From Promethearchaeota archaeon (lineage in GTDB: Archaea > Asgardarchaeota > Thorarchaeia > Thorarchaeales > Thorarchaeaceae), in NCBI GenBank assembly GCA_027031765.1, contig JALVPN010000077.1, positions 8,191 to 40,190 on the forward strand: a stretch of 32,000 nucleotides of DNA. The letters are read 5' to 3'. A program made the position numbers and the translations under genes. Below are positions 2,805-24,298 of the stretch, one piece after another. The first letter of the stretch is position 1. Every line of letters starts with the position of its first letter. The notes under the pieces were generated by a model. That model was not told the origin of the DNA, searched no databases, and worked only from the letters and a program-made list of their open reading frames with translations.

Positions 2805-3063
2805 GATGGGTCATCACGGGCGGAGCTGCGCATTGGATGAATCTTTTGATAGTGCGAGGACTGCTGACGGGACGGGACACCACATGTGTGTGACGCCTGC
2901 ACGCGGGCTGCTGGTGACATGCGACATGGTGGCATGATACAGTACATGTGGGTATGGGCGGGTGTACACGGTCTGGTGACTGACCGATGGGGTACAGGGG
3001 CCAGCACCGGCCCCTCCATGAAGTGGGGCTGGCCAGTGGGGCGACTGCCAGTGGAATCAATGC

Positions 3064-3069
3064 TATAAG
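3064..3069 (+). promoter_or_regulatory. Putative TATA box for hflX
   Basis: TATAAG about 26 nt upstream of ATG 3095, compatible with a leaderless transcript. Confidence 0.5.
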
Positions 3070-3094
3070 TCAAAGGGGCAACATGCACTGCAAG

Positions 3095-4381
3095 ATGGAA
3101 ACAGGCACCGCCGTGCTAGTCCAGCGCAGATCGCCTGAAGAACCAGACCTGATGGACGAGTTCGAGGCCCTTGCTGAAACGGCAGGCTACACGGTCATCG
3201 GAAAGTTCGACGTAGTGGGCCCGCCGTCTGCTAGGTTCGGCATCCGGACCGGGAAGGTCGAGGAGATAGGGACATGGATTGAACACCGACAGCCGGACTT
3301 TGTGCTCTTCGCGCCGGCGCTCAGGTCGGGCCAGATGTTCAGGTTGATGGAGGAGTGGGGGGTCGAGGTACGCGACAGGACACAGCTCATCCTTGAGATC
3401 TTTGACAGGCACGCACGTACACCACAGGCAAAGCTCCAGATAGAACAGGCACGTCTGAGCTACGAGCTGCCGTTCCAGAGGCACCAGATCAGGATGCGCC
3501 TGCAGAGGGAGCACACAGGGGACAGGCCGACCACCGAACAGGTCGGTGCTGGAGAGGACCTGCTCAACATGAGGGTGAGGGAGATACGCAGGCGGATAGC
3601 CCACATACGTCGCAGGCTCACCGAGATCTGGCGGGCCCAGGACCTGAAGCGGAAACAGCGTGACCAGAGGGGCTTCTACGAGGTGGCGCTGGCAGGCTAT
3701 ACGAATGCCGGGAAGAGCACCCTGCACCGGGCACTGACCGGCTCCGAGGTCGAGGTCGCAGACGGGCTGTTCACCACCCTTTCGACAAAGGCGTCGTTGC
3801 TCGGGACACCCGGGCGGCGCACAGTGCTGATAGACTCTGTGGGCTTCATCAGTTCGCTCCCCCGCGACCTGTTGGATGCGTTCCGGACCACCCTGCAGGA
3901 GATTGCCGATGCCGATGTCATTGTCCTCGTAGTGGACGGGTCGGACAGCACGGACGAGATCATGAGGAAGACCGCGACCTGTACCAGCACGTTCCTGGAG
4001 ATAGGTGCCAATGGTATACCAGTCGTGGTGGCCATGAACAAGGTCGACCTGCTGACGGAGGCCGAGGTCGAGGAGAGGCTGGACGTACTCAGGAGCACAT
4101 ACGAGAGCGTTGTCCCGGTCTCAGCCATGCATGGGATCAACCTGCAGACACTCGTGGCCGAGGTCGAGAAACGGCTGCCACCTCTTGAACACTACCAGCT
4201 CTCATTGGAGTATGGTGACGAGTCTGCATCACTCATATCGTGGCTGCACGAGGTGGGACGCATTGAGCACAAGGAGTACAGTGCACATGGAGTGCGGTTG
4301 GATGTCGCACTCACGGCGGACATTGCTGCCAAGTTGTCGAGGATAGTCCCACCGGACAGGATCCGCAGGAGAGGCCACTGA
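3095..4381 (+). CDS. hflX: GTPase HflX
   Basis: DRTQLILEIF..HA...AKLQIE.A.L.Y motif; G1 GYTNAGKST, G2 LFTTL, G3 DSVG, G4 NKVD. Start placed at ATG 3095 (ATG 3083 is an alternative); the track start at 2987 lies upstream of the TATA box. Confidence 0.93.
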   Translation: METGTAVLVQRRSPEEPDLMDEFEALAETAGYTVIGKFDVVGPPSARFGIRTGKVEEIGTWIEHRQPDFVLFAPALRSGQMFRLMEEWGVEVRDRTQLILEIFDRHARTPQAKLQIEQARLSYELPFQRHQIRMRLQREHTGDRPTTEQVGAGEDLLNMRVREIRRRIAHIRRRLTEIWRAQDLKRKQRDQRGFYEVALAGYTNAGKSTLHRALTGSEVEVADGLFTTLSTKASLLGTPGRRTVLIDSVGFISSLPRDLLDAFRTTLQEIADADVIVLVVDGSDSTDEIMRKTATCTSTFLEIGANGIPVVVAMNKVDLLTEAEVEERLDVLRSTYESVVPVSAMHGINLQTLVAEVEKRLPPLEHYQLSLEYGDESASLISWLHEVGRIEHKEYSAHGVRLDVALTADIAAKLSRIVPPDRIRRRGH

Positions 4382-4456: not shown

Positions 4457-5122
4457 GTGATAGCCCTTCGACTGAAGGCACCAGAGAAAATCCTTGAGGC
4501 GCTGGAGGGACACGAGAAGATAGTGCTCTTTGGGGACTCCGGGTGTGCCCAGCTGTGTGATGTGGGCGGACTGCTCCAGCTCGAGGACATGGAGGACTTC
4601 CTGACAAGGAACGGGAAGACCGTCCTCGGTGCTGTGTTCGTCGAGGGTGGCATCTGCAATGGCCCTGTCTTCAGGAGTACGGTGCAGGAGCAACGGGCAG
4701 TGATAGACAGCGCCGACGCACTGCTGGTACAGGCCTGTGGTGTCGCAGTACAGACCATTGTAGAACACATCCCGGAGAAGGAGGCCTTCCCTGCGGCTGA
4801 CTCGATGTTCCTCGGGGTTTCAAGGGGGCGTGGGACACACTCCGAGCTCTGCGCGATGTGCGGGGACTGCATCCTCCACCTGACCGGCGGGATATGCCCA
4901 CTGGCCCGCTGTGCGAAGGGGATACTCAACGGCCCCTGCGGTGGCTCCATGAACGGCAAGTGCGAGAGGGATGAGGACACTGACTGCGCATGGCAGCTCA
5001 TCTACGACAGGCTGCGGGCACTGGGAAAGCTCGACAACATCCGGAAGGTGTGGGAGATGAAGGACTGGAGGAGCTCACATGGGCCGCGGGTCATCTCGCA
5101 CCATGGAGGCGCAATAGCCTAA
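4457..5122 (+). CDS. metV: MetV-type Fe-S/Zn partner of methylenetetrahydrofolate reductase (MTHFR C-terminal-like domain)
   Basis: Cys pattern CAMCGDC..TGGICP..RCAK..LNGPCGG..GKCE...DCAW; GGAGGT ribosome-binding site before GTG; immediately upstream of metF. Confidence 0.85.
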   Translation: MIALRLKAPEKILEALEGHEKIVLFGDSGCAQLCDVGGLLQLEDMEDFLTRNGKTVLGAVFVEGGICNGPVFRSTVQEQRAVIDSADALLVQACGVAVQTIVEHIPEKEAFPAADSMFLGVSRGRGTHSELCAMCGDCILHLTGGICPLARCAKGILNGPCGGSMNGKCERDEDTDCAWQLIYDRLRALGKLDNIRKVWEMKDWRSSHGPRVISHHGGAIA

Positions 5123-5170
5123 AGATAATAAGGGGTCTCAGCCGGTCGAGTCCAGAAACACGAGGAGAGG

Positions 5171-6103
5171 ATAACACTCGGTAGCGGAACACGGCTGCAA
5201 CAGTCACTGGAAAGAGAAGGCCTGACCATCACCGGGGAAATCGTACCCCCCCGCGGTGCCAGCCCGAAGGCCCTGCTTGAGAAGGCACGGGCGGTCGCTG
5301 CGGACTGTGTCGCCATCAACATCACGGACAACATACGCGGGAACCCAGCAATGAGCAGCATTGCAGCCAGCCACCTGATATGTGACGTGGGTGCCGAACC
5401 AATACTCCAACTGTCGACACGCGACAGGAACCGCATACTGCTTGAGAGCGAGCTGTATGGCGCCCATGCGCTTGGCATCAGGAACGTCCTCTTTGTGACT
5501 GGCGACCACACGCTGCTCGGCACCCATCCGCATGCAAAGATGGTCTATGACCTCGACTCGATACAGGCCCTCCAGCTGGCCTCGGAGCTCATGCATGGCA
5601 GGGACCTGGCGGGAAAGGAGCTCGATGGTACACCGTCGTTCTATCTGGGCTCCACCTTCAACCCGTACGCAGACCCCATGGAGCTCCATGCCTGGCGGGT
5701 CGAGAAGAAGCGGGATGCCGGGGCACAGTTCTTCCAGACGCAGGCAGTATACGATGTCGGGCGGTTCAGAGACTTCATGGCACAGATACGGGGCCTCGGA
5801 GTGTACGTGCTCGCCGGGATATACGTCCTGAGAGGGCCGAAGACCGCGAGGTTCATGGACGAGCGCGTGCCGGGGATATACATCCCAGAGGAGATAATTG
5901 AACGGCTCGAGAAGGCTGGGGAGGGCCTGAGTGGCAAGGAGGCCCGGGCCCGCAGACGGGAGGAGGGCATAGCGATAGCCCTTGAGACCACAAGGGAGGT
6001 GATGAGGGTGCCGGGGGTGCACGGTATTGACCTGATGGGGACGGGCTGGGAGCCACACATCACACGCTTCATCGAATCTGCAAGCGGACAGCAGGAGGGA
6101 TAG
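5171..6103 (+). CDS. metF: Methylenetetrahydrofolate reductase, MetVF type; probable non-canonical (ATA) start
   Basis: Motifs TGDH..GTHP.AK.V.DLDS, EKK..AGAQFFQTQ.VYD. The conserved N-terminal GEIVPPRG and AINITDN lie upstream of the first ATG (5351), so the true start is further 5'. Start coordinate uncertain. Confidence 0.85.
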   Translation: MTLGSGTRLQQSLEREGLTITGEIVPPRGASPKALLEKARAVAADCVAINITDNIRGNPAMSSIAASHLICDVGAEPILQLSTRDRNRILLESELYGAHALGIRNVLFVTGDHTLLGTHPHAKMVYDLDSIQALQLASELMHGRDLAGKELDGTPSFYLGSTFNPYADPMELHAWRVEKKRDAGAQFFQTQAVYDVGRFRDFMAQIRGLGVYVLAGIYVLRGPKTARFMDERVPGIYIPEEIIERLEKAGEGLSGKEARARRREEGIAIALETTREVMRVPGVHGIDLMGTGWEPHITRFIESASGQQEG

Positions 6104-6107
6104 GAGG

Positions 6108-7025
6108 TTGTTCGTGTTCAAGAAGGAGCAACAGGTAATAGAGATTGGAGGCGTGAGCGTAGGCGGGCAGCCCGGGGAGCACCCCACCGTACTGATAGGT
6201 GGCATGTTCTTCAAGGGCCAGCCCATCGTCAAGAACACAAAGCAGGGGATATTCGACGAGGAGATGGCCCGTGAGTGGGTCGACCTTGCCAACGACATGG
6301 TGATCCGCACAGGACACCCGCTCATCATACAGGTGTACGGCCGCACCGAGACCGCCATGGAGCGTCACATAGGCTGGCTCGCAGAGAACTTCGACGGGCC
6401 CTTCATGTTCGAGTCGACGAACGCAAAGGCGCGGGTGAGAGGGATTGAGTACTGCAACGAGACCGGCCTCCATGACAGGGCAATCTACAACTCGGTCAAC
6501 CTGTCGATGAAGGACGATGAGAAACAGGTCCTGTCCAACAGCCGCATTGACTCCGCAGTTGTCCTTGGCTGGTCGCCACGCGCCACGAGCCTTGAGGAAC
6601 GGATGGAAACAGTAGGGGCAATGATTACGGAGGCCCGTGAGATGGGGCTCCAGCGGCTGCTCGTGGACCCTGCAACTCTGCCCGTGGGCGCAGGGTACGG
6701 ACTCGAACTGCGCACTATGATTGCGATAAAGTCACAGCACGGTCTGCCGACCTGTCTGGGCCCCCACAATGCGCCCTCGGCGTGGCAGTTCATCAAGCAG
6801 CCCGGCCTTGACGACGAGCCGGCACACCTCTCGGCAGTGGTCGCGGCAACGGTGGCGGCTCAGCTGTTCGCCACAGATGCGGTCATGTATGGCTCGATGG
6901 CACGGACGAGGGAGGCCTTCATTGCGGTTGCCCTGATAGGGAATGCACTCGCAGCCACTGCGGCCGAGGCATCCCATGCACTCGGGGTGGACAGGCAGCT
7001 CTTTGAACCGCCCACATCGTTCTGA
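6108..7025 (+). CDS. mtrH: MtrH-family pterin methyltransferase, divergent paralog 1
   Basis: MFVFKKEQQVIEIGGV..GGQPGEHPTVL, AIYNSVN, GPHNAPSAW; TTG start. Confidence 0.85.
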   Translation: MFVFKKEQQVIEIGGVSVGGQPGEHPTVLIGGMFFKGQPIVKNTKQGIFDEEMAREWVDLANDMVIRTGHPLIIQVYGRTETAMERHIGWLAENFDGPFMFESTNAKARVRGIEYCNETGLHDRAIYNSVNLSMKDDEKQVLSNSRIDSAVVLGWSPRATSLEERMETVGAMITEAREMGLQRLLVDPATLPVGAGYGLELRTMIAIKSQHGLPTCLGPHNAPSAWQFIKQPGLDDEPAHLSAVVAATVAAQLFATDAVMYGSMARTREAFIAVALIGNALAATAAEASHALGVDRQLFEPPTSF

Positions 7026-7048: not shown

Positions 7049-7741
7049 GTGGGGCAGAGTGCTGACAGGCAGTGGCCGCCGGTGCCAGGCGACTTCATTG
7101 TGGGCGACCCGGGACACCCGGTGGCCATATGCACGCTCGGTAAGAAGATTGATGTTGACTGTGAGTACGCCATAATCGGGACGTGCAAGACCGAGAACAT
7201 AGGGATAGAGAGGGTCATTGTGAACATAGTCTCGAACCCAAGGGTCAGGTACCTGATACTCGCAGGCCCAGAGGTGCCGGGTCACAGGACGGGACAGTCC
7301 CTCAAGAGCCTGTATGAGAACGGGGTCGATAGCAAGACCCGGCGGATTGTGGGTGCGGAGGGGGCGATACCGTTCATTGAGAACGTGCCCCTTGAGGCGG
7401 TCGAGCGGTTCCGTCAGCAGGTACAGCTCGTCAACATGCTGAACATCACCGACCCGTCGAGGATTGCGGACACCGCTGCAGAGCTCGCACGCAAAGACCC
7501 CGGCGAGTTCCCGGACGGACCCATGTGGGTGGACTTTGGCACGCACCAGGGTGCCACCCGCGTCCTCACTCCGGGCGGTGCGGTTGCCATTGTCCCGGAG
7601 CTCGGTATTGCGCTCGACCCGTGGACGTCGCTGGTGTCATCACGGGACGCCATGGTGATAGTCTCAGTGCACCCATCAACCGTGGTCGCAGAGTTGCAGG
7701 AACAGGACGGTGGACACGTGATTGTTGTGAGGGAGGTATGA
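7049..7741 (+). CDS. mtrA: MtrA-family corrinoid protein, soluble, with an MtrB-like C-terminal extension
   Basis: CKTENIGIERVIVNIVSNP..RYLIL.G.EVPGH.TGQ...NG....I.GA.GAIPFIEN, with the Co-ligand His in the GH motif retained. No hydrophobic membrane anchor seen. Confidence 0.9.
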   Translation: MGQSADRQWPPVPGDFIVGDPGHPVAICTLGKKIDVDCEYAIIGTCKTENIGIERVIVNIVSNPRVRYLILAGPEVPGHRTGQSLKSLYENGVDSKTRRIVGAEGAIPFIENVPLEAVERFRQQVQLVNMLNITDPSRIADTAAELARKDPGEFPDGPMWVDFGTHQGATRVLTPGGAVAIVPELGIALDPWTSLVSSRDAMVIVSVHPSTVVAELQEQDGGHVIVVREV

Positions 7742-7747
7742 CAGACA

Positions 7748-8683
7748 GTGTTCGTGTTCGAACGTGAGCAGCAGATCTTTGACATCGGTGGTGTCACGGT
7801 CGGTGGCACTCCGGGAGAGAACCCGACCGTCCTTGCCGGGACGATATTCTACTCCGGTGACAAGACCGTCCGCGACGCCCGTACGGGCGAGTTCGATGCG
7901 GCGGAGGCGGAGAGGCTGGTCACGACACAGGACGAGCTGTCAGACATGACGGGCAACCCGGCCCTCGTCCAGGTGTTTGCACAGTCGCCGCGTGCTGTGG
8001 AGAGGTACATCGACTTTGTGAGCGAGGTCACTGATGCGCCGTTCCTGATAGACTCCACAGACCCTGAGACACGGGTCGCGGGGCTCCGTCATGCGGAGGA
8101 GGTGGGGCTGCTCGACAGGGCGGTGTACAACTCCGTCAACATCTCAATGACCGAGGACGAACGGATGGCCCTCTCCGAGATGGGACAGCTGTGTGCGATA
8201 GTCCTTGCTTTCAACCCCCATGACGCGACGATTGCAGGGCGCAGGGCCGTCCTCGAGTCAGGGACGCCGGAGATGGGAGAGGGGCTGCTTGAGACCTGTG
8301 AGAAGGTGGGCATCAACAGGCCACTCATAGACACAGCAATGACCTCCCTCGGGGCCGGGGCGGGGCCCGCCGTGGCATTCACCCTCGTTGCAAAGAGCCT
8401 CTATGGCTATCCCACCGGGTGCGGTATACACAATGCCGTGTCGTCGTGGCCATGGCTGCTGGGACTGAAGCGACACGACAAAGAGGCATACCGCACCTGT
8501 GATGTCGCGTCCAACGTCATCGTACAGCTGATGGGCGGTGACTTTGTCCTCTACGGGCCCATAAAGAATGCCAGGCTCGTGTTCCCTGTGGCTGCAATGG
8601 CAGACGCGCTCGCGGCCGAGTGCGTGAGCATGGAGCTCGGTGTCAGTCCGGCCGATGGGCACCCGTTCAGGCGGCTGGTATAG
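7748..8683 (+). CDS. mtrH: MtrH-family pterin methyltransferase, canonical-like paralog 2
   Basis: GGTPGENPTVLAGTIFY, PFLIDST, RAVYNSVN, GCGIHNAVSSW, GDFVLYGPI.NA. Confidence 0.92.
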   Translation: MFVFEREQQIFDIGGVTVGGTPGENPTVLAGTIFYSGDKTVRDARTGEFDAAEAERLVTTQDELSDMTGNPALVQVFAQSPRAVERYIDFVSEVTDAPFLIDSTDPETRVAGLRHAEEVGLLDRAVYNSVNISMTEDERMALSEMGQLCAIVLAFNPHDATIAGRRAVLESGTPEMGEGLLETCEKVGINRPLIDTAMTSLGAGAGPAVAFTLVAKSLYGYPTGCGIHNAVSSWPWLLGLKRHDKEAYRTCDVASNVIVQLMGGDFVLYGPIKNARLVFPVAAMADALAAECVSMELGVSPADGHPFRRLV

Positions 8684-8698
8684 GACGGGTGTAGCAGT

Positions 8699-10108
8699 AT
8701 GCCCACAAGGCCCACATTTGTGCGCCCGCCACGCATGGGCACGCTGTCACTCAGGAAGGGGCCGTTCTATACGGTGGCCTCTGTAGAACTCGGTAATACC
8801 ACCACCAAGTGTGTGGTAGTGACGACCGACCTCAGGACAGCGCGCATGTACATGCTGGGAAAGCTCGTGCGTCTGACGCGTGAGGCAAGACCACCGCGGG
8901 AGGGGGAGCTGGTCTTTGGGAGGACGCTCACTGGCACACCGCTCACACGGGAGTCCGTGGCAGAGCTGGTCGCCGAGACCCTCACGGGAGCTGTAAGGCA
9001 GGTGAGGCTGGACATTGAGCGCGACCTCCACTTCGTCGTCCGGTCCACGGGCGTGACCGCAGGGTTCGCCACACCGTCAGAGGTCGGCGAGATGGTCAGG
9101 GCCCTTGCCCAGGGCTGTCTGCAGGCCGGGATCCCGCCACGGAAGATGACAGCATCAATCTCACTCGACAGGGTCCCACCAGGGCTCCGGCGCTACAGCC
9201 TCCTTGACAGGGTCTACTTTGATGGGGCGGTGGCCGGGACGCGTCCCCCGGCGGCAACGGAAATCGTAGCAAATGAAATGGAGGGGGAGCTGGTCACTGC
9301 CGGACTGAAGGGTGCCGCAAAGAACACGCAGGTCGACTTCAGGAACCCTGTCATGACCCTGGACTTCGGCACCACACTGGCCGGACGCGTGACTGACGAG
9401 TCGTACCCCTATGCAGATACCATTGGCTCGTTTGCGGGGCTTGGTGGGGCGATACCGGACGCCCTCGTCCGTGGTGCAGGCCTTGCAGACCCGGTCACTG
9501 GTTGCGTCCTTGATGTCGAGGCCCCGAAACGGTACAGCGTGGAGGTGGGCGAGTGGCTCGAAAAAGTGCACTCGCTTGTGGATGTGCGGACAGTCCCAGC
9601 TGGTACCACCAGGTTCGGCACGGTGCCCGTAGACACCAGGGCAGCGGACGAGTCAGGGGTCGTGCTGATAGGCGTCGACGCTGGGAGGAACGGGTCTGCC
9701 CTGTCGGAGCTGGAGAGACTGGGCGCGGAGGTCTACGAGGCGGGCGGACTGGGACTGCTGATGGGCCTTGTCGACCGGGTGCAGGTACAGACAGTGCAGA
9801 GGCTCGTGAGCACCGCGGAGGAGGAGGGCATCGTGCTCCCCCGGACGGCACTTGGCCTGACAGGAAGGGGGATTACGACTGGCACGAAGCCGCGACTGGT
9901 CACAAAGTACCTGACCACTGCGAGCGGCGAGCCCTGGACAGAGTCGCATGTCCTGCTCATGGTAGAGGACGGGCTTGCCCTCGGAGCTGCGGTAGCGGCC
10001 CGCTGCATGAACTCCATGGGGACTCCCAAGCACCCGATAGGTGGCCGTCAGGGTGACGGGTGCGTGCTGGCCGCGCGGCGCGAGGCACAGAAGGGCCGTA
10101 CTGGATGA
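8699..10108 (+). CDS. Methanogenesis marker protein 14-like (DUF2114), predicted ASKHA/actin-like ATPase fold
   Basis: YTVASVELGNTTTKC, VFGRTL.G..LTRESVAELV, FVVRSTGVTAGF, ANEMEGEL.TAG.K, DFRNPV.TLDFGTTLAGR, GLGGAIPDAL. Confidence 0.85.
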   Translation: MPTRPTFVRPPRMGTLSLRKGPFYTVASVELGNTTTKCVVVTTDLRTARMYMLGKLVRLTREARPPREGELVFGRTLTGTPLTRESVAELVAETLTGAVRQVRLDIERDLHFVVRSTGVTAGFATPSEVGEMVRALAQGCLQAGIPPRKMTASISLDRVPPGLRRYSLLDRVYFDGAVAGTRPPAATEIVANEMEGELVTAGLKGAAKNTQVDFRNPVMTLDFGTTLAGRVTDESYPYADTIGSFAGLGGAIPDALVRGAGLADPVTGCVLDVEAPKRYSVEVGEWLEKVHSLVDVRTVPAGTTRFGTVPVDTRAADESGVVLIGVDAGRNGSALSELERLGAEVYEAGGLGLLMGLVDRVQVQTVQRLVSTAEEEGIVLPRTALGLTGRGITTGTKPRLVTKYLTTASGEPWTESHVLLMVEDGLALGAAVAARCMNSMGTPKHPIGGRQGDGCVLAARREAQKGRTG

Positions 10109-10174: not shown

Positions 10175-10948
10175 GTGCTTGTCATCCCCATCAGGACCAG
10201 GGTCATCAGACCCGACGACAACATAGTGGATGTGATACTCGACGGCCTTGCCAGGGCTTGCCACGAGCTCCGTGAAGGGGACATCCTAGGGATTGCTGAA
10301 ACACCACTGGGGACGACGGAGGGGCGGGTGATTCGCCTGTCAGACGTAGTTGTGAGTGACAGGGCACGAGACCTTGCACAACGCTACGACATGGTACCGG
10401 AGGTCGCGCAGCTCGTACTGGACGAGGCCGACGAGGTCCTCGGAGGTATCCCACACGTGCTCCTCACAATCAAGAACAACACACTGATGGCCAATGCCGG
10501 GGTCGACAAGTCGAATGTGCCACCGGGCTACGCATCACTGTTGCCCGAAGACCCGGCAGCCAGTGCAGCACGGATACGGGAGGAGGTGGCCAGGCGCCTC
10601 GGCATAGGAGTGGGCGTAATCGTGATAGACAGCCGTACGCAGCCGCTGCGGCTAGGCAACGTAGGGATGGCCCTTGCTGTGGCGGGGTTCCGGCCCGTGG
10701 TCGACGAGCGTGGCAGGACAGACCTCTTCGGGAACGTCCTGCGCGTGACGCGACGTGCTGTTGCTGACAACCTGGCCTCTGCGTGCACTGCGGTGATGGG
10801 TGAGGCCGACGAGGCAGTCCCAGCGGCACTGATAAGGGATGCGCCCGTCGAGTACACGGACACTGTCCACGACTCGTCAGAGATGTGGATTTCACCCGAG
10901 GAGTGCATGTACATGGCAATCTTTGAGCAGTGGAGACGCGGGATGTGA
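10175..10948 (+). CDS. cofE: Coenzyme F420-0:L-glutamate ligase
   Basis: IPIRTRVIRPDDNIV, ANAGVDKSN, DS..QPLRLG.VG.A, D.RG..DLFG..L.VT, ADNLASA...VMGEA.E..P. Confidence 0.88.
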   Translation: MLVIPIRTRVIRPDDNIVDVILDGLARACHELREGDILGIAETPLGTTEGRVIRLSDVVVSDRARDLAQRYDMVPEVAQLVLDEADEVLGGIPHVLLTIKNNTLMANAGVDKSNVPPGYASLLPEDPAASAARIREEVARRLGIGVGVIVIDSRTQPLRLGNVGMALAVAGFRPVVDERGRTDLFGNVLRVTRRAVADNLASACTAVMGEADEAVPAALIRDAPVEYTDTVHDSSEMWISPEECMYMAIFEQWRRGM

Positions 10949-11063: not shown

Positions 11064-12404
11064 GTGGGAAGACCAATAGTCCTCTTTGATGTCGCGTCGG
11101 CAGGTGCATCCGGGGACATGTTCCTGTCAGCACTGATAGACCTGATTGGGGACGACGAGGCCATACTCCGAGTCGCAGCAAGCATGCTGATCTACGACCC
11201 GACGCTACGGGTAAACGTCACACCTGTCACAGTGGGGGACACTGAGGGCAAGAGGCTCGATATCACCCTAGACACAGGGGTCAGGTTCGAGCCGCAAGCA
11301 ATGCATGAGGTGCTCAAAGAGGTCGCAACCGAGCTTGAGCTCTCAGAACACGGCCTCGAGACCGCAGAGCGGATGCTGGACATACTGTTCACCGCCGAGA
11401 GCAAGGCACATGACACGCCGGTGGATGAGCTGCACCTCCACGAGGTCGGCTCCATAGACACGGTTCTTGACGTCGTTGGGGTAGTGTACCTCCTTGAGAA
11501 GGCTGGTCTCCTCGGTGCAAAGTTCATCTCCACTCATGTGGCAATTGGCCAGGGCAGCATCGAGACCGAACACGGCGCGTTCGAGGTGCCAGTGCCAGCC
11601 GTTGCGGAAATCCTTGTTGCACATGACATCCCATTCCACAGGAGCACAGCCCAGACCGAGACCCTGACCCCGACAGGGGCCGCTATACTGGCGGCGCTTG
11701 CGGAGGACTACGTCGACTCGACTGAGGGCATCGAGTTGGAACGTTCCGGGGTGGGTTTCGGAACTCGCGACCTGGGCGAAACGCCGAACGCGATGCACAT
11801 ACACATCTGTCGCGGGACGGCACCAGCACGAGAGGCCGCCGAGATGACACGGGAAGCAGAGGCGGAAGGAGCAAAAGAGGCCGCGGCACCAGTTGAGGCC
11901 CCAGAGGCCGACCGGAGGCTTGAGACGTTGACGGGTTGGGACACTGACGAAGTGGTAGTCCTCGAAACGAACGTTGACGATGTCGATGGCGAGACCATGG
12001 GTACGCTCTTCGACGCACTGCTGGACACACATGGTGTGTTTGATGTGGTGGCAATCCCGGCATATGGGAAGAAGAACCGTCCGTGCCTGGTCGTAAAGGT
12101 GATTGCTTCGGCTCGGGCCCTCGCGGAGGTCCCCGACATCCTAGTGAAACACCTGGGGACAATTGGGGTGCGGTATACCACGTGGCGCCGCGTGAAAGCG
12201 ACCCGCGAAACCGTCGTCTGCAGGATTGATGTGGAGGGCAAGGAGTACATGGTGCGGGTGAAGGTCTCACGGAGTGCGGACGGCAGTGTGGTGAATGTCA
12301 AGCCAGAGGCCGATGATGTGAGAAAGGTCGCACGTGAGACCGGCATCCCGACGCGGTTCCTGCGGCCAATGATCATACTACAGGCGAAGGCGGTCACCGA
12401 GTAG
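11064..12404 (+). CDS. larC: LarC-family nickel insertase (fused N- and C-terminal halves)
   Basis: GASGDMFLSAL, HLHEVGSIDTVLDVVG, ETLTPTGAAIL, LETNVDDVDGE, KKNRP, TIGVR, VKPE.DD. Confidence 0.9.
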   Translation: MGRPIVLFDVASAGASGDMFLSALIDLIGDDEAILRVAASMLIYDPTLRVNVTPVTVGDTEGKRLDITLDTGVRFEPQAMHEVLKEVATELELSEHGLETAERMLDILFTAESKAHDTPVDELHLHEVGSIDTVLDVVGVVYLLEKAGLLGAKFISTHVAIGQGSIETEHGAFEVPVPAVAEILVAHDIPFHRSTAQTETLTPTGAAILAALAEDYVDSTEGIELERSGVGFGTRDLGETPNAMHIHICRGTAPAREAAEMTREAEAEGAKEAAAPVEAPEADRRLETLTGWDTDEVVVLETNVDDVDGETMGTLFDALLDTHGVFDVVAIPAYGKKNRPCLVVKVIASARALAEVPDILVKHLGTIGVRYTTWRRVKATRETVVCRIDVEGKEYMVRVKVSRSADGSVVNVKPEADDVRKVARETGIPTRFLRPMIILQAKAVTE

Positions 12405-12418
12405 GCGGTCGCAGTGGA

Positions 12419-14662
12419 CTACTGGCCATGCGTAACAGCAAGGTGCAGGTAGTGTGCCGGCACAAGCTCTTCAAATGCACGCAGACACATCCGTGCATAC
12501 GCATCAGGGTCGTAGCGTGTCGACGGGACCACAAGTGGGAGTGCGAGGACACGGCCGGTCTGGCGGGTGACCCCAGGCTCTACGACGATGTAGTCGACCA
12601 CTTGGCCGGCGTGCAGGTGCATGCCATGTGCAGCGAGCTGTTGTGCTGCAACAGCTGCTGGGGAGAGGACCCGGTGTTCACCGGGACTCCTTGAGAGGCG
12701 CTCGTGGACGACCAGGTCACGGATGTCAACATCCCGCTCGTACAGGCGGTCGATGAATGTCTGACAGACCTCTCGGGCCTGTGGGAGCATCTTGAGAAAA
12801 CCCCTGCGTCCATGTCCGCGGGCCAGTGTACGGAGCACTGCCATCTGACAGTCGTACACGTACGTGCAGGTATCGCGTCGCCGGAGGGCCAGCCCCCGCG
12901 CCTTGATTGAACCATTGTAGAAGAGGCCATAGTACCGGTTGATGGGCGCGAGCCGTGGGCGCGAGCGCAGCGATGGGATGACCATCCAGTCATAGATACC
13001 ATTCGAACGCATGGGGATGTCCACCTCTCCAGTCACCAGCTCGCAGAACTCCTCCACAAGGTGCACATCAGGGCCATCGGCGTGTCTCAACCAGATTGAG
13101 TCCACAATCCCATGGATGACCTCGAAGCCCATGTCCTCTGCAATGTCCTTTGCACGCAGGAGGACATCACGGCCAATGGCCGTGACGGCAGCGTGCGCCT
13201 CCGCACGACCGAACCGCGCGTTCCGGAAGCCAAGATAGCCGAAGCAGGACACGAGCACGCCCTTCAGTGTGTGTTGCATCCGTCCGTAGCGGTCTGCATC
13301 ACGGCCCTCAGTCACCAGCCTCTTGAATGCATCCCGCTTTGCAATGACCAGTCTGAGTGCCTCGGGTATGATACCACGCCTCTGTCTGCACACCTTGAGC
13401 CCGAGCCCCGGGACTTCGACACATGACCGCTGGTCGTAGGGGCACTCGTGCCCCATGCATATGGTCTCGGGGCTGATGTTACGGGTCAACATCAGGGTGG
13501 GGTACATTGATGCAAAGTCGCACTCGACCACGTCCTCGTACACGTCGGGTGAGGGCTGTAGGACCAGGCCACCACGGTCAGCAGCGCTCAGACTGGACAC
13601 GGACTTGAGGGACTCTGGGTTACGCCCGACAGGGGGGACGAGGATGTCGAGCTTGTATGCAGTGTAGGTCTGGATAGCCGCATTGACCCCACCAATCGAC
13701 ATCCGGGCCGCCTGCTGGGGCCGTATCAGGGCAATCCGTGACGCCTCGACAATACCCTCTATTCCCTGCGGCGAGTAGTATAGGCTGGTCTCTTCGTCCA
13801 CATGGATGCGCCCGTTCAGCAGGACTGGCGGGCCGGGGCGGTACGCGACGTGGTTGTACTGCCAGAAGGACTGCGGCCGCGGTGCCCTAACACTGAGTGG
13901 CGAGCCATCACGGGAGAGCACGAGGTCGATGCCGTGGGCACGTGCACGGTGTGCAAGGTGTGGAAAGAGGAATCCATCACCACCACGGGTGATGACCACA
14001 TCGGGGTCGATCCGGTCGAATGTGTCCTGGAAGGAGAGGAGCGTATCACGTTCGTCCGGACACTGTACCCGGTATACCCTGTCACGTTGTCTCAGGGCAA
14101 TGCACTCTACCGGGTCATCCCTGTGGGGGACGAGGTGCTCACCCCTTGTACATACAGCCAAGTGCACCGTGGTGAGTGGTGGGACTGTGTATTCCGTGTC
14201 CTCACGCCGGTCCAGACACTGCACGGCCCGTGCTACTGGGCCCTCCCTGTAGATGCGCACGCGTCCGAACGGGAACACATCATGCCCTATGAAGAACTGC
14301 TGCACCGGGTCAATGTCGGCATGGAAGACTGTTGCACCAGGCAGTCTGCGCAGGTCACGGGCCAGTGACGGCACCGAGAGGGGGGTCGTGCGGACCCGTA
14401 TGACTGGACGGCGGGACGAGTCATAGACCGAAACGAACCTGTATACCAGGGAGACCTCCCGGACGGCGGGATGAGAGCTGACAGCAGTCAGCAGGTACTT
14501 TTGGTCACCGCAAGACTGGAGACAGGGAGACGACACGAAGAGGGACGGGTAGAACTCGTAGTCGAGGGCGTCCGTGCGGCCCCCGTCCTTGACCCAGAGG
14601 ACCAAACAGTCCTTGGAACGGTTGATGTCTGCATCAAGTAACCAGCAGTCCTGCCAGCTCAT
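12419..14662 (-). CDS. polB2: Family B DNA polymerase, PolB2 group (degenerate catalytic and exonuclease motifs)
   Basis: Motif A DFASMYPTLM, motif B K..LVSCFGYLG, motif C HGIVDS (canonical YGDTDS); no ExoI DxE; ATGA overlap with the upstream small gene. Confidence 0.88.
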   Translation of the reverse strand: MSWQDCWLLDADINRSKDCLVLWVKDGGRTDALDYEFYPSLFVSSPCLQSCGDQKYLLTAVSSHPAVREVSLVYRFVSVYDSSRRPVIRVRTTPLSVPSLARDLRRLPGATVFHADIDPVQQFFIGHDVFPFGRVRIYREGPVARAVQCLDRREDTEYTVPPLTTVHLAVCTRGEHLVPHRDDPVECIALRQRDRVYRVQCPDERDTLLSFQDTFDRIDPDVVITRGGDGFLFPHLAHRARAHGIDLVLSRDGSPLSVRAPRPQSFWQYNHVAYRPGPPVLLNGRIHVDEETSLYYSPQGIEGIVEASRIALIRPQQAARMSIGGVNAAIQTYTAYKLDILVPPVGRNPESLKSVSSLSAADRGGLVLQPSPDVYEDVVECDFASMYPTLMLTRNISPETICMGHECPYDQRSCVEVPGLGLKVCRQRRGIIPEALRLVIAKRDAFKRLVTEGRDADRYGRMQHTLKGVLVSCFGYLGFRNARFGRAEAHAAVTAIGRDVLLRAKDIAEDMGFEVIHGIVDSIWLRHADGPDVHLVEEFCELVTGEVDIPMRSNGIYDWMVIPSLRSRPRLAPINRYYGLFYNGSIKARGLALRRRDTCTYVYDCQMAVLRTLARGHGRRGFLKMLPQAREVCQTFIDRLYERDVDIRDLVVHERLSRSPGEHRVLSPAAVAAQQLAAHGMHLHAGQVVDYIVVEPGVTRQTGRVLALPLVVPSTRYDPDAYARMCLRAFEELVPAHYLHLAVTHGQ

Positions 14663-15960: not shown

Positions 15961-17175
15961 TCAGGCGGTCATGAGCACGCACGCGGATATGCGCTGGTAG
16001 AACTCACTTGCAGCGGTCTGGAGCACTTCAGGGGCGTCAGACATCGTGTGTATTTGCAGCTGACACTTCTTCGAGACCAGGTCACCGACCATCAGGACAT
16101 GGAGGACGACCTTCAGTCCCGTATAGCTACCTGTGCCAGCGGCCTTCAGGGATGCCATCAAGACACTGCTTTCACGACGGGTCTTGCAGTCGAAGGTGTG
16201 GAGGTTGCACCTGTCGAGCATGTCCCTGATGGCCTCGAACATCGTCACGGGGTCTACAGGCACCTCGTGCTCACGACTCCACCCCTTCATGGCCCGCAGG
16301 AGAGTGGCCTCTTCAGATGGCGAGATGTTGAGTGGTTCCAGCCGCTCGAAAAATGTCCGGACGGTGCAGTTCCCCGCAGGTGCAGACGCCCGCTGGCCGT
16401 CGACATCTGTGAACACCACCAGCGGGACAATCTCTCCCTCTATGCACTCGCGTGTCGCTGACATCTCAAACGTGACAGACCGTGCCTCTCCAGGTCCAAT
16501 ACGTGGGACTGTCCGCACAGTGCCATCGACCGGTCTCAGGCTGTCGGCCGGGTAGGCGAGCAGGCGTACGTCCACGTCAGTGATTGGGCCCTGCGTGTCA
16601 TTCGACACCCGGATCCTGAAGGTGACAGTCCCATCATTGACTGAGAGCTCGTTTGAGACTGAAACATCCATCCTCGTCCGGATGGGCACGGGGTCTAAGG
16701 ACATGGGCGCGGCAGGCTGGGAAACTGCTGTGGAAACGACCACCTGTGGGCGCTGACTCCCGGGTGTCCCCTGAGTGTGAGAATGGAGCACGGCCCACTC
16801 GTGTGCATACTCAGCTGCCTGCACTACCATCTCCAGAGGGTCGTCTTGGGCCAAGGCGAGGGTGTCCGACACCCCACTGGGGTCGATGGTGGTGAGGAAG
16901 ACAAGGGCTGCTGCGCGTACCTCTCCGGTGTCGTCATGACAGGCAATCTCAAGGCCCCCAATGGCCTCGGGCCCAAACTCAGCAAGCCGACATACAGCAA
17001 GGAGCCGGGTCTCAGGCTCGCCCGCGAGAGATGCGTCCTTGCATGCCTGTAGAGACCTCAAGCCCGACAGCATACGCGAGAGAGGGGGGTCAGACTCCTC
17101 AAGAAAGAGGGCCCGTCGTAGGCGTGAGAGGATGCCGCCAGAGTCATCAGGTGTGTTCTCCATGCCCGGACTCAT
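15961..17175 (-). CDS. HEAT-repeat protein with C-terminal Ig-like + platform (adaptin/coatomer appendage-like) domains
   Basis: HEAT-like RLLAVCRLAEFG.EAI..L....HDD..EVRAAA...L; low-complexity linker; beta-sandwich (FRIRVSNDTQGPITDVDVRL...IGPGEARSVTFEM...GEIVPLVVFTD); alpha/beta C-terminal domain. Confidence 0.7.
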   Translation of the reverse strand: MSPGMENTPDDSGGILSRLRRALFLEESDPPLSRMLSGLRSLQACKDASLAGEPETRLLAVCRLAEFGPEAIGGLEIACHDDTGEVRAAALVFLTTIDPSGVSDTLALAQDDPLEMVVQAAEYAHEWAVLHSHTQGTPGSQRPQVVVSTAVSQPAAPMSLDPVPIRTRMDVSVSNELSVNDGTVTFRIRVSNDTQGPITDVDVRLLAYPADSLRPVDGTVRTVPRIGPGEARSVTFEMSATRECIEGEIVPLVVFTDVDGQRASAPAGNCTVRTFFERLEPLNISPSEEATLLRAMKGWSREHEVPVDPVTMFEAIRDMLDRCNLHTFDCKTRRESSVLMASLKAAGTGSYTGLKVVLHVLMVGDLVSKKCQLQIHTMSDAPEVLQTAASEFYQRISACVLMTA

Positions 17176-17216: not shown

Positions 17217-17421
17217 GTTATGGCACAACACAGCGGTGCAGTGGCACCACACTGTTTTGTCGGCCGGGGGACTGAGGACGTAGAGGGCGCTGTGGAGCAG
17301 CAGCAGTACAAACAACATGAGAGTTGACACCCGGACTGACGACAGTGTTGCAACTAGCAACTTTTTAGGGGAATACCGTCATAGCGAGCTACGACCCCCC
17401 CCCCACCATGAGGCGCATCAT

Positions 17422-18552
17422 ATGAGCGAGCACGAACTCACACTGTTCTTGAGACCAGAGACCATCAAGCCGCCTGCCGAGCACGGCTCCGAGCTCACAC
17501 GGAGGATTGCACTGAACCATGCAGGCCGATTGATTGCTGTGGGAATGCAGGACAAGAGCATCCGGCTATACGATGCAACCAACTTCGAGGAGATCCAGAA
17601 GCTCCAGGACAACTTCCTGAGCACGGCTCTGGCATTCAGTCCACGAGGGGACACTGTGGCATCTGGTGGTGTCGACAGGGTGGTAAAGATATGGGACATA
17701 AGGACGGGCGAGGTGCTCACGACACTGGAAGGGCACACATACCCGATTCTCGGGCTCTCGTTCTCACCTGACGGTAGCAGGCTCCTCTCAGCCAGCGGAG
17801 ACACGACGCTCATAGTCTGGGATCTCAACAGTGGCACCGAGTCCAGCAGGCTCAGGGGCCACAAGTTATACGTCATGTCCTGCGACTGGCATCCAGAGGA
17901 CGACCTCGTCGTGTCGGGGGCTGTCGACGCCACCATTGCACTGTGGGACCCGAACACTGGCAAGATGTTGGGCCAGTACGGCGAACACAGGACCGCGGTC
18001 CATGTGGTCAGGTTCTCCCCACAGGGTGACAGGCTCCTGTCCACATCATCGGACATGACGTGCAAGGTCTGGGACGTGGGCGGGGAGAGCGTCAGGCCCG
18101 TGCACACCCTTCAGGGGCACACAGCAGAGGTGAGGACGGCCACATGGAGCAGTGACGGAGAGCTCATCGCCTCAGGGTCCAGTGAGAAGGAGCTCTTCCT
18201 CTGGTCACTGGACTCACTGCAGGTGGAGGGGGAGGCACGTACAGCTGGGGAGATTGACGGGATAGAGTGGTTCCCTAGCAAGAAGGAGTTCGTCACAGCC
18301 GACAGTTCGGGGGCAATTACCCGCTGGCGCGTACAGGAGCTGTCCATTGTCCTGGCGCCATTCCGCGACCTGCTGGCAGAAATCCAGGCAGACAGCACAG
18401 GGGCGCACCGTGAGGAGCACATCCGCCAGTTTGACGACCTCGTGCAGCGCTACGGTGAGGAGACCCTGAAGGACAAGAGGGTGTTCTATCTGATGTGGCA
18501 GTGCAAGCGTGCACTGGGGCTCCTCAAGGGCAGACCAGCCGGTACACGGTGA
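17422..18552 (+). CDS. WD40 beta-propeller protein (about 7 blades) with a short helical C-terminal domain
   Basis: Repeated GH...FSPxG..L.S.S.D..V.IWD units (VVKIWD, LIVWD, IALWD, CKVWD, LFLWS, ITRWR); GAGGCG ribosome-binding site 6 nt before ATG 17422. Confidence 0.92.
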   Translation: MSEHELTLFLRPETIKPPAEHGSELTRRIALNHAGRLIAVGMQDKSIRLYDATNFEEIQKLQDNFLSTALAFSPRGDTVASGGVDRVVKIWDIRTGEVLTTLEGHTYPILGLSFSPDGSRLLSASGDTTLIVWDLNSGTESSRLRGHKLYVMSCDWHPEDDLVVSGAVDATIALWDPNTGKMLGQYGEHRTAVHVVRFSPQGDRLLSTSSDMTCKVWDVGGESVRPVHTLQGHTAEVRTATWSSDGELIASGSSEKELFLWSLDSLQVEGEARTAGEIDGIEWFPSKKEFVTADSSGAITRWRVQELSIVLAPFRDLLAEIQADSTGAHREEHIRQFDDLVQRYGEETLKDKRVFYLMWQCKRALGLLKGRPAGTR

Positions 18553-21997: not shown

Positions 21998-24298
21998 TTG
22001 AGGAAACTGATTGTCGCGACATTACGGGAGATACTCTGTGCATCAATGTCACTCGATGATGGACTGTCAGCAATCCAGAACATATCCATAGGGCACACGG
22101 AGGAGTCGGACATCCCATATGACATTGCAAGGGCAATAGAGGAGATACTCCTCCGTAGACCGGGACTGGCAAGTGCCAAGTTGATGGAGTTGACAGTACG
22201 CCTCTCCTCGGACCCGGACCGGACGCTCCCAAAGATGTTGATGCTCCTTGACACGAGGTCCAACACTGCATATAGGAGGGGCGAGTGCGAGATACTGCCA
22301 GATATCCAAGCCCTACCACAGCTGCTGGACATCCTTGGCGAGCTGTCCAGCGCAGTCATGGACGGGCTGTCCCTGAACCTCAGACCACTGATCCCGTTCC
22401 TTGCAGACGAGATGCTCATGACGCTGACATCCATAGTCGACCGGGGACACCCCGCGTCGACGCGGCTTGCAGTCAGGGAGACCCACCACCTCGCGAGCAT
22501 CCTAGTAGACAGGGGCTTCTACGAGTGTGCGGAGCTGCTCTTGGAGGCGCTCGTACGGGTCGCGGCCGAGGTGCAGGACGAGAGGCTCTACTTTGAGGTC
22601 GCCATCGACCATGCCGTCGTACTGACCGAGACCGGTCTCTACAAGCAGGCACGGACTATCCTCGAAGACCTTGAGAGGAGGGTCAAGGAGAACAGTGACG
22701 TGGCCGCACAGGCGGCAGTGGCCCTGCAGATTGCAGTGAACGAGACCCGTGATGACACTGTGGACCATACCACTGCAAGGGCGTCTGCGGACAGGGCGGT
22801 CGAGCTGCACCGGCTGGCAGTGGAACAGGGGCGCATGGCGCCTGACGAACTGGCCGTTGCCGAGCTGACGGTGGGGGTGAACATCTTGGCCAACGGCTGG
22901 CGGGAGGCCGTCCCACAGGCAATGGAGCGTCTGGAGGCCGGGCTTGCGGTCTACGAGGAGATGGACTCGCTCACCCAAAGACAGGCCTCCCACTGTTTCA
23001 AGGTCCTGGCCGGACTGGGGTTTGCGCACGGCCTGCTGAGTGACCACGACAATGTGACTCTGAGCATCAGGTACCTGAGACGTGCTGAGGCACTGTTGAG
23101 GGAGTCTGTGAAACCAGAGGAGGACATCACAGAGAAGATTGCTGCATGTGAACACTGCATTGGCTGGGTGTGTCTGTGTTCGGAGTCCGACGAACACTGG
23201 GAGCTGGGCATCGACGCCTTCAGAAAGGCCACCGAGTTGCGTCGTGCCCTTGTCGGTGAGGGGCGGCTGTCATGGCTCGCCCTACTCGGTAGCGAGCTTG
23301 GCCATGCACTGTCGTTGATACGGACTGCAGGAAGGATGGACGAAGGGCTCCAAGAACGCCTCGTAAGGATTATGCACCAGTATACCCTGTTGTTCCCGAC
23401 CGATCTGCGGGCCTTCGAAGAGGCTGCCATTGCTACCTACAACATTGTGTGGCTAGCCTCACGACATGGGGCGGAGCTGTCACAGGAGTTGCTCCGACTC
23501 CTTGAGGACATAGACAGGATGTTGACCGATGCGACGCCTGTGGAGGACTCTGTCTTCGTGCGCGGGATCTCCCTACTGATGCCATACCTGAAGTCGGACT
23601 GGAGAGCACTGCGGTACAGGGCCGAGGCCCTGCTCCATGCTGGCGGCCCACTCAGGGACGTGGTACTGCTGATGAGCACGCTGGCAAAGATGCGCATCGC
23701 TCTAGACTACATGACCCTAGAGAGCATCACGCAGGTGATAACGGGTCATGACGGACAACTGGACGGCACCGACGAGCTAATGGCGAGGTACTGGGACGGA
23801 CAGGTCGTACTTGCAAGGGCAGTGGCAGCATTCTACGGTAACAAGGACTACACTACACTCGCCCAAGGGCTGTACGACGCGGCCGTGATGCTCAGAGGCG
23901 TACTACATGCAACGACCGACTTTGAAGAGGCTGCCGAGTTTGTAAGGGCCACGGCCGGCTCGCTAGCGGGTGTACTCCTGAGGTTCGCAACGGCCCTGGA
24001 GAAGACCTACGGCGCGAGAATAGAGAAGAGCACCCCCGACATCACCCCAGCAGACCTTGAGGACACGGGCTTCAACTTCATCCTGTCAGAGGACTGGATT
24101 GGACTGCTGAAGATAACCAACGCGTATCTTGAGATGGTGGAGAGAGCAGAGCTGGCCCAGGCAATGCCATACCTCAACGCAGTCTTCTCAAACATTGCAA
24201 GTGCACTACGGATGATGGACCGCATTGCAATGGTCGACAGGCGCATGCTGAACAGGCTCGGCGAGGAAATGAACAGGCGGTACTATCTCAGGCGCTGA
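21998..24298 (+). CDS. Large alpha-helical TPR-like/solenoid hypothetical protein (766 aa)
   Basis: Long ORF with TPR-like helical pairs (GFYECAELLLEAL, GLYKQARTILEDL, LEAGLAVYEEM, ACEHCIGWV...AFRKATELRR); no catalytic motif recognised. Confidence 0.75.
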   Translation: MRKLIVATLREILCASMSLDDGLSAIQNISIGHTEESDIPYDIARAIEEILLRRPGLASAKLMELTVRLSSDPDRTLPKMLMLLDTRSNTAYRRGECEILPDIQALPQLLDILGELSSAVMDGLSLNLRPLIPFLADEMLMTLTSIVDRGHPASTRLAVRETHHLASILVDRGFYECAELLLEALVRVAAEVQDERLYFEVAIDHAVVLTETGLYKQARTILEDLERRVKENSDVAAQAAVALQIAVNETRDDTVDHTTARASADRAVELHRLAVEQGRMAPDELAVAELTVGVNILANGWREAVPQAMERLEAGLAVYEEMDSLTQRQASHCFKVLAGLGFAHGLLSDHDNVTLSIRYLRRAEALLRESVKPEEDITEKIAACEHCIGWVCLCSESDEHWELGIDAFRKATELRRALVGEGRLSWLALLGSELGHALSLIRTAGRMDEGLQERLVRIMHQYTLLFPTDLRAFEEAAIATYNIVWLASRHGAELSQELLRLLEDIDRMLTDATPVEDSVFVRGISLLMPYLKSDWRALRYRAEALLHAGGPLRDVVLLMSTLAKMRIALDYMTLESITQVITGHDGQLDGTDELMARYWDGQVVLARAVAAFYGNKDYTTLAQGLYDAAVMLRGVLHATTDFEEAAEFVRATAGSLAGVLLRFATALEKTYGARIEKSTPDITPADLEDTGFNFILSEDWIGLLKITNAYLEMVERAELAQAMPYLNAVFSNIASALRMMDRIAMVDRRMLNRLGEEMNRRYYLRR

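Follow-up and report, generated by a model that had tools for sequence, protein, structure and literature searches.

The mtrA-like gene of the window, the 32,000-nucleotide stretch of Thorarchaeia DNA analysed here, probably encodes a soluble form of MtrA whose C-terminus carries a homologue of the N-terminal arm of MtrB. This arm would clamp the protein to a dimer of the two MtrH proteins encoded by the flanking genes. Mtr is the sole energy-conserving step in many methanogens, and the arrangement of MtrH and the mobile MtrA domain has been visible only since the cryo-EM structures of 2024-2025.

The gene occupies positions 7049..7741 of the forward strand, and the segments given below within these limits lie on the same strand. 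It begins with GTG, ends with a TGA stop codon at 7739-7741, and encodes 230 amino acids. The protein is composed of a corrinoid-binding domain (residues 4-166; 7058..7546), a flexible, disordered linker (residues 167-178; 7547..7582), and a 52-amino-acid, all-beta tail. The Pfam MtrA match (PF04208, E 1.7e-56) is confined to residues 4-166, and Foldseek places this Rossmann-like domain on 5laa with 54% identity and an rmsd of 1.2 A. Solved MtrA domains can be aligned only as far as residues 156-167, and full-length mtrA models stop aligning at residue ~165-170. His79 sits in the motif GPEVPGH, which aligns to SEVQGH in 5laa, and is unchanged across 41 orthologues. It occupies the position of the cobalt-ligating histidine (His84 in M. 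marburgensis numbering). Against TIGR01111 the protein scores 192 bits, below the equivalog cut-off of 249 bits. The linker has low pLDDT (below 50 at residues 165-172 in the AF2 model), and its sequence varies among orthologues. A Foldseek search with the full-length AF2 model returns MtrA domains only.

In this reading frame, codon 179 starts at window position 7583. From there to the TGA, the translation is identical to the one quoted in the initial annotation, which had described the protein as continuing past the corrinoid domain. The tail consists of an MtrB-like arm of three short strands (residues 179-200; 7583..7648), which holds the invariant Pro183-Glu184 pair and the Pfam MtrB match, and a C-terminal beta-hairpin extension (residues 201-230; 7649..7738). 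When modelled by AF2 with 41 orthologues, the protein has a confident MtrA domain, the disordered linker, and six short beta strands. The tail modelled alone has a mean pLDDT of 84 and the same six strands, with no helix predicted. A search at E <= 1e-5 yielded 1,292 orthologues. The best 120 of these are 221-250 amino acids long, mostly 227-232, cover the query nearly end to end, and are Thorarchaeota wherever they are named. In an alignment of 31 diverse tails, Pro183, Glu184 and Gly222 are invariant. The hairpin extension is kept in these 31 representatives, and the motifs HPS and GT(I/L)L..(K/R)E are conserved in it.

Residues 179-200 (VAIVPELGIALDPWTSLV...), with which the tail begins, are similar to the MtrB N-terminal arm. 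Among 24,736 Pfam models scanned, the sole match of the tail is MtrB (PF05440), with an E-value of 0.003-0.0045 and a score of 18 bits against a cut-off of 27. The match spans profile positions 2-33 of 94; positions 34-94, which describe the cytoplasmic stalk helix and the membrane helix, are unmatched in the tail. The NCBIfam matches are likewise two MtrB models only (E 0.02-0.09), both below their curated cut-offs: TIGR04166 with 13 bits against 50, and NF002129 with 15 bits against 113. Since these single-sequence scores fall under the curated cut-offs, they constitute sub-threshold similarity and not a formal family match. The Pfam MtrB model is matched independently by 14 of the 31 diverse orthologous tails, and the only other Pfam match among them is of one tail to AHSA1 (E 0.2). 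In the whole 2.95-Mb genome, the best PF05440 match is the MtrA tail (E 0.036), and the runner-up has an E-value of 6.8.

The pattern that the initial annotation had given for MtrB N-termini is real. It matches the MtrB N-termini of 35 genomes of methanogens, ANME and Methanopyri, with MVHVAPEAHLVLDPLTSLL and MSIVRIAPEINLVMDTESG as examples. These 35 distinct sequences, taken from genomes of Halobacteriota, ANME-1 and Methanopyri, formed the MtrB comparison set. Using hhalign, the profile of the whole tail aligned to this set with a probability of 82.7% and a P-value of 9.5e-6, pairing tail residues 179-202 with MtrB residues 4-27. The first half of the tail reached a probability of 91.9% and a P-value of 6.8e-7. 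As a control, 30 column-shuffled MtrB alignments gave probabilities of at most 2.2% and P-values of at least 0.022. The profile comparison proposed as a check on the MtrB relationship came out in its favor, with single-sequence scores staying sub-threshold. By hhalign, residues 201-230 align neither with MtrB nor with the tail's first half, and they have no detectable relative. The tail, proposed to be an MtrB N-terminal segment, is MtrB-like only in its first ~22-30 residues, by both Pfam and hhalign, and not in its last ~30. A second idea, that the tail consists of two copies of an MtrB-like hairpin, was rejected, as hhalign returned nothing for the first half against the second or for the second half against MtrB.

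The likeness can also be approached from the other direction. In a six-frame search of five methanogen genomes with the tail profile, the top match was the N-terminus of MtrB in four of the five (E 0.03-0.05 each), and the coordinates coincide with those of the PF05440 matches. In a library of 1.84 billion representative proteins, this profile found its own family only, with no MtrB at E <= 0.001. A 22-residue motif is hardly able to reach an E-value of 0.001 in a library that large, so the absence of MtrB there is uninformative. With phmmer, the tail matched nothing among the PDB sequences at E <= 10, and a Methanopyrus-type MtrB used as a protein-search query found six close relatives only.

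The predicted fold of the tail was compared with solved structures. In a Foldseek search of 350,542 chains with the tail-only model, the M. mazei MtrB chains 9qtp_E, 9qts_E and 9qts_D ranked 25, 31 and 46. They superpose with an rmsd of 1.5 A over 24-25 columns, at 24-25% identity and a probability of 0.72-0.77. For 9qtp_E, whose identity as MtrB was confirmed, the rmsd is 1.5 A over 25 columns and the TM-score normalized by the target is 0.73, at a probability of 0.77 and with 27 residues modelled in that chain. These matches are not significant in Foldseek terms: the E-value for MtrB is 2.0, and numerous unrelated beta hairpins have similar ranks. With VIA-align, no chain out of 48,161 matched the tail model at Z >= 5; the highest Z was 3.0, by which a known fold is neither assigned nor excluded.

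The arm of MtrB has a known binding partner. The M. marburgensis structure is described as having MtrB disordered over its 30 N-terminal residues, whose binding to MtrH was predicted by AlphaFold (PMC10998594). In the M. mazei cryo-EM structure, as described in PMC12774963, the MtrB arm docks onto the MtrH dimer as a three-stranded sheet, with small hydrophobic residues occupying a hydrophobic pocket where the two MtrH subunits meet. The same description gives two salt bridges, Arg5(MtrB)-Asp5(MtrH) and Glu9(MtrB)-Arg211(MtrH), and has the N-termini of MtrF and MtrG extending the MtrB sheet (PMC12774963). In the hhalign register, Pro183 and Glu184 of the window MtrA correspond to Pro8 and Glu9 of MtrB, and both are invariant. 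Residue 180, the counterpart of Arg5, is not basic.

The genes on either side of mtrA encode the candidate partners. MtrH1, a divergent paralogue, is encoded at 6108..7025 (forward strand; PF02007, E 3.4e-74), and MtrH2, which is canonical-like, at 7748..8683 (forward strand; PF02007, E 6.2e-109). When both are aligned to 9qtp_o, Arg202 of MtrH1 corresponds to M. mazei MtrH Arg211 and is invariant in 28 orthologues, and MtrH2 has Ala210 at this position. Position 5, the Asp5 site, is occupied by Glu in MtrH2 and by Lys in MtrH1. The two proteins thus retain complementary halves of the salt-bridge set by which MtrB is docked in M. mazei.

Homology of the arm, together with the conserved Glu184 and Arg202 of MtrH1, suggests that the tail docks onto MtrH. 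The initial annotation had the protein keep an MtrH-docking element. What stands of this is that the arm is very probably homologous to the element seen experimentally and described in PMC12774963. Because the start of the tail resembles the MtrB arm, the tail probably tethers MtrA to both neighboring MtrH proteins. In the assembly proposed here, a flexible linker of ~12-20 residues would connect the corrinoid domain with a small all-beta module, whose first three strands (residues 179-200) would be the homologue of the MtrB N-terminal arm. Thorarchaeia lack the membrane stalk, so the arm would be carried by MtrA itself. The arm would most likely clamp MtrA to a dimer of MtrH1 and MtrH2, with Glu184 pairing with Arg202 of MtrH1, and the cobamide domain, held on its leash, could then visit the active site or sites of MtrH. 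The hairpin of residues 201-230 would probably complete the sheet in place of the MtrF and MtrG N-termini, making the tail a self-standing mini-domain. We infer the choice of partner between the MtrH proteins, the role of the hairpin and the physiological reaction. A complex prediction of MtrH1, MtrH2 and the tail gave ipSAE values of 0.22 and 0.09, against a mark of 0.32, which count neither way.

A more elaborate scheme builds on the two unlike MtrH proteins. Their complementary residues would fit, speculatively, an obligate heterodimer of MtrH1 and MtrH2 that is clasped asymmetrically by the tail. The cobamide would then shuttle a methyl group between two different pterin sites, for example from or to methyl-H4MPT and a folate-type carrier supplied by the adjacent MetFV. 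We consider this scheme rather unlikely. If it were true, the assembly would be a soluble pterin-to-pterin methyltransferase made from Mtr parts, and possibly a living model of how Mtr was before it had a membrane part, or of a relic left after that part was lost.

An unlikely reading is that the resemblance of the arm to MtrB is due to chance or convergence. The tail would then be an unrelated small beta domain serving, for example, in MtrA self-association, cobamide capping, or recruitment of the DUF2114 ATPase. Such a reading can draw on the sub-threshold standing of every direct sequence match, on the 1.84-billion-protein search with no MtrB among its matches, on the lack of a significant fold match by Foldseek or VIA, and on residues 201-230, more than half of the tail, having no MtrB counterpart; a short strand-turn-strand motif could in principle also converge. 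Against this, independent tests single out the same 22-30 residues and agree on their register, the shuffled controls fail, the invariant Pro-Glu falls where MtrB has its residue salt-bridged to MtrH, and the operon contains two MtrH genes. The tests are individually not formally significant and agree on both segment and register, and residues 179-200 are in our judgement very likely homologous to the MtrB arm. The likeness probably reflects homology and not convergence.

The mtrA operon contains further genes, all on the forward strand. A MetF-like methylene-pterin reductase is encoded at 5351..6103, with its true start probably upstream, and is preceded at 4457..5122 by a MetV-like zinc-ribbon partner of MetF (PF12225, E 4e-35). 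Downstream of mtrH2 are DUF2114, or methanogenesis marker 14 (8699..10108, E 1e-179), and CofE, the F420:gamma-glutamyl ligase (10175..10948), with which the conserved part of the cluster ends. Wherever the contig reaches, 68 of 68 related loci keep the order MetF-MtrH1-MtrA-MtrH2-DUF2114-CofE, these loci being from Thorarchaeota, Hermodarchaeota and Promethearchaeota MAGs. In all 68, mtrA lies between MtrH1 and MtrH2 where the locus is long enough. MetV precedes MetF in many of the loci, and one has an inverted cofE upstream instead. DUF2114 is found directly 3' of mtrH2 in every related locus, and a putative role for it in servicing the corrinoid is plausible.

In the genome, which is 95% complete, there is one MtrA and two MtrH, all of them in the mtrA operon. 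No match at E <= 1 was found to PF04206, PF04207 or PF04211 for MtrC, D and E, none above cut-off to PF05440 for MtrB, and McrA was not found. The search for membrane Mtr subunits covered MtrB, C, D and E. Of 85 genomes in the window's own family, 76 have the tail; of 314 genomes in other families of the same phylum, only 1 has it. That one, from a different Asgard family (L131:815-3512, genome G620), also has the set MtrH1-MtrA(tail)-MtrH2. Its arm reads LPEFNINLDPYTGLV, and the sole Pfam match of its tail is MtrB (E 0.017).

How the arm came to be on MtrA is a separate matter. The initial annotation proposed a fusion of MtrA with the N-terminal part of MtrB. The mtrB gene immediately precedes mtrA in mtr operons, and simple read-through would therefore put the B part at the N-terminus, giving B-A and not A-B(N). 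The A-B(N) architecture reflects either a rearrangement or a different history. In the latter case, the arm would be homologous without MtrB having been fused onto MtrA, as the MtrA tail could be the older of the two or both could derive from a shared mobile docking peptide, and docking to MtrH would be the same. The gene order in mtr operons, the occurrence of the gene set in a second Asgard family, and a weak match in the same register between the MtrB arm and the tails of Methanosarcina MtxA (hhalign P 0.0012) all speak for such a history. The MtxA similarity lacks Pfam support, however, and Adam et al. (PMC9635834) interpret MtrAH of Thorarchaeia as what is left of a complete Mtr, which favors secondary loss and rearrangement. 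We regard a history without fusion as improbable. The least probable reading, to which we give almost no credence, is that the tail arose by decay of the linker and transmembrane helix of MtrA itself; it has in its favor that the tail occupies the position of the canonical MtrA anchor, and against it a low hydropathy, beta strands predicted in place of a helix, full-length mtrA models that do not reach the tail, and strong conservation with invariant residues, unlike a decaying segment.

The highest Kyte-Doolittle mean over 19 residues is 1.38 in the tail, against 2.57 and 2.76 in the anchors of two canonical MtrA (one from ANME-1, one from Methanopyri), and the mean maximum across 120 orthologous tails is 1.13. 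Neither hydropathy nor AF2 places in the tail a C-terminal transmembrane anchor helix of the type found in the MtrABFG stalk. The description of the tail as ending without a transmembrane helix is thereby borne out, and so is the claim that all membrane segments of Mtr are missing, in that the protein holds none and MtrB, C, D and E were not found in the genome.

Several other features of the window were observed. The MetF frame is open for ~73 codons before its first ATG, GTG or TTG, and this upstream segment (5132-5350) encodes the conserved N-terminus of MTHFR (..LTITGEIVPP..), which is also present in orthologues. There is no canonical start codon for MetF from the stop at 5129-5131 to 5351, and a GAGGAGAGG stretch is located at 5159-5167, upstream of the MetF ORF. 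A nearby canonical MetF start is also missing in several other Thorarchaeia loci (L036, L038 and L057). MetF could begin at a non-canonical start codon, or the cause could be something else. Two large ORFs have no Pfam match at E <= 0.001, at 15961-17175 (reverse strand, 403 amino acids) and at 21998-24298 (forward strand, 766 amino acids); the first of these adjoins a WD40 propeller gene (17317-18552). Housekeeping genes are found at 786-2804, 2987-4381, 11064-12404, 12419-14662, 24288-26378 and 29119-31266. Their products include an archaeosine-type tRNA-guanine transglycosylase with a PUA domain, an HflX-like GTPase, a LarC-type nickel insertion protein, a family B DNA polymerase, EF-2, and the anaerobic ribonucleotide reductase NrdD.

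If the proposed docking arm is correct, a soluble version of Mtr with the arm on MtrA would be an easier system in which to study methyl transfer between MtrA and MtrH. It would explain how the 'MtrAH remnants' of Thorarchaeia can still work as one enzyme. The Pro-Glu arm with its hairpin would also serve as a sequence marker by which soluble Mtr modules that function could be told apart from stray MtrA paralogues. The presence of an arm on MtrA bears on the evolution of the Mtr stalk. The MtrAH genes of Thorarchaeia, from the same lineage as the window, were published in 2022 as remnants of methanogenesis (PMC9635834). Among the papers found, none was seen to describe the MtrA tail, its resemblance to MtrB, or the consequence for a soluble assembly, and the term "MtrB" does not occur in the main text of PMC9635834.

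The closest known counterpart of the arm is that of MtrB itself, solved in M. mazei (9qtp, 9qtq and 9qts) and disordered in M. marburgensis (8q3v). The pattern (V/I)x(V/I)xPExx(L/I)x(L/M)DPxT(S/G)(L/V)(V/L) is common to both MtrB and the window tail in the same register. They share the Pro-Glu pair, and the three predicted short strands superpose on the solved arm. In MtrB, the arm is at the N-terminus of a separate protein of 100 amino acids, whereas in the window MtrA it is at the C-terminus. MtrB also has cytoplasmic and membrane helices, both of which the tail lacks. The tail has instead a beta hairpin of ~30 amino acids after the arm that is not in MtrB, and its equivalent of Arg5 is not basic.

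Canonical MtrA of methanogens and ANME (PF04208; 5laa, 5l8x, 8q3v_A, 9qtr_A) has a corrinoid domain that is 42-54% identical to that of the window MtrA and shares the cobalt-ligand histidine. It is anchored by a C-terminal helix in the stalk, whereas the window MtrA has no anchor and no MtrB, C, D or E partners were found for it in the genome. MtxA and MtxH of Methanosarcina, and other soluble pairs of MtrA-like and MtrH proteins, combine an anchor-less MtrA homologue with an MtrH homologue, as here. The window MtrA scores 165 bits against the MtxA model (NF010654), below the equivalog cut-off of 279 bits. The tails of MtxA from four Methanosarcina-type genomes (L123-L126) are ~25 amino acids long (..GD(V/I)IISEEFVMDSxxGIIC..) and are similar to the MtrB arm in a matching register, with an hhalign probability of 19%; none has a Pfam match. 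Other anchor-less MtrA paralogues may, to judge from these sequences, carry their own arm for docking to MtrH or MtxH. In Atabeyarchaeia and Freyarchaeia, as described in PMC11291895, proximity of the two proteins is achieved instead by covalent fusion of MtrA to MtrH. In this company, the MtrA tail is a new architectural variant of the known Mtr system and is not unique to this genome.
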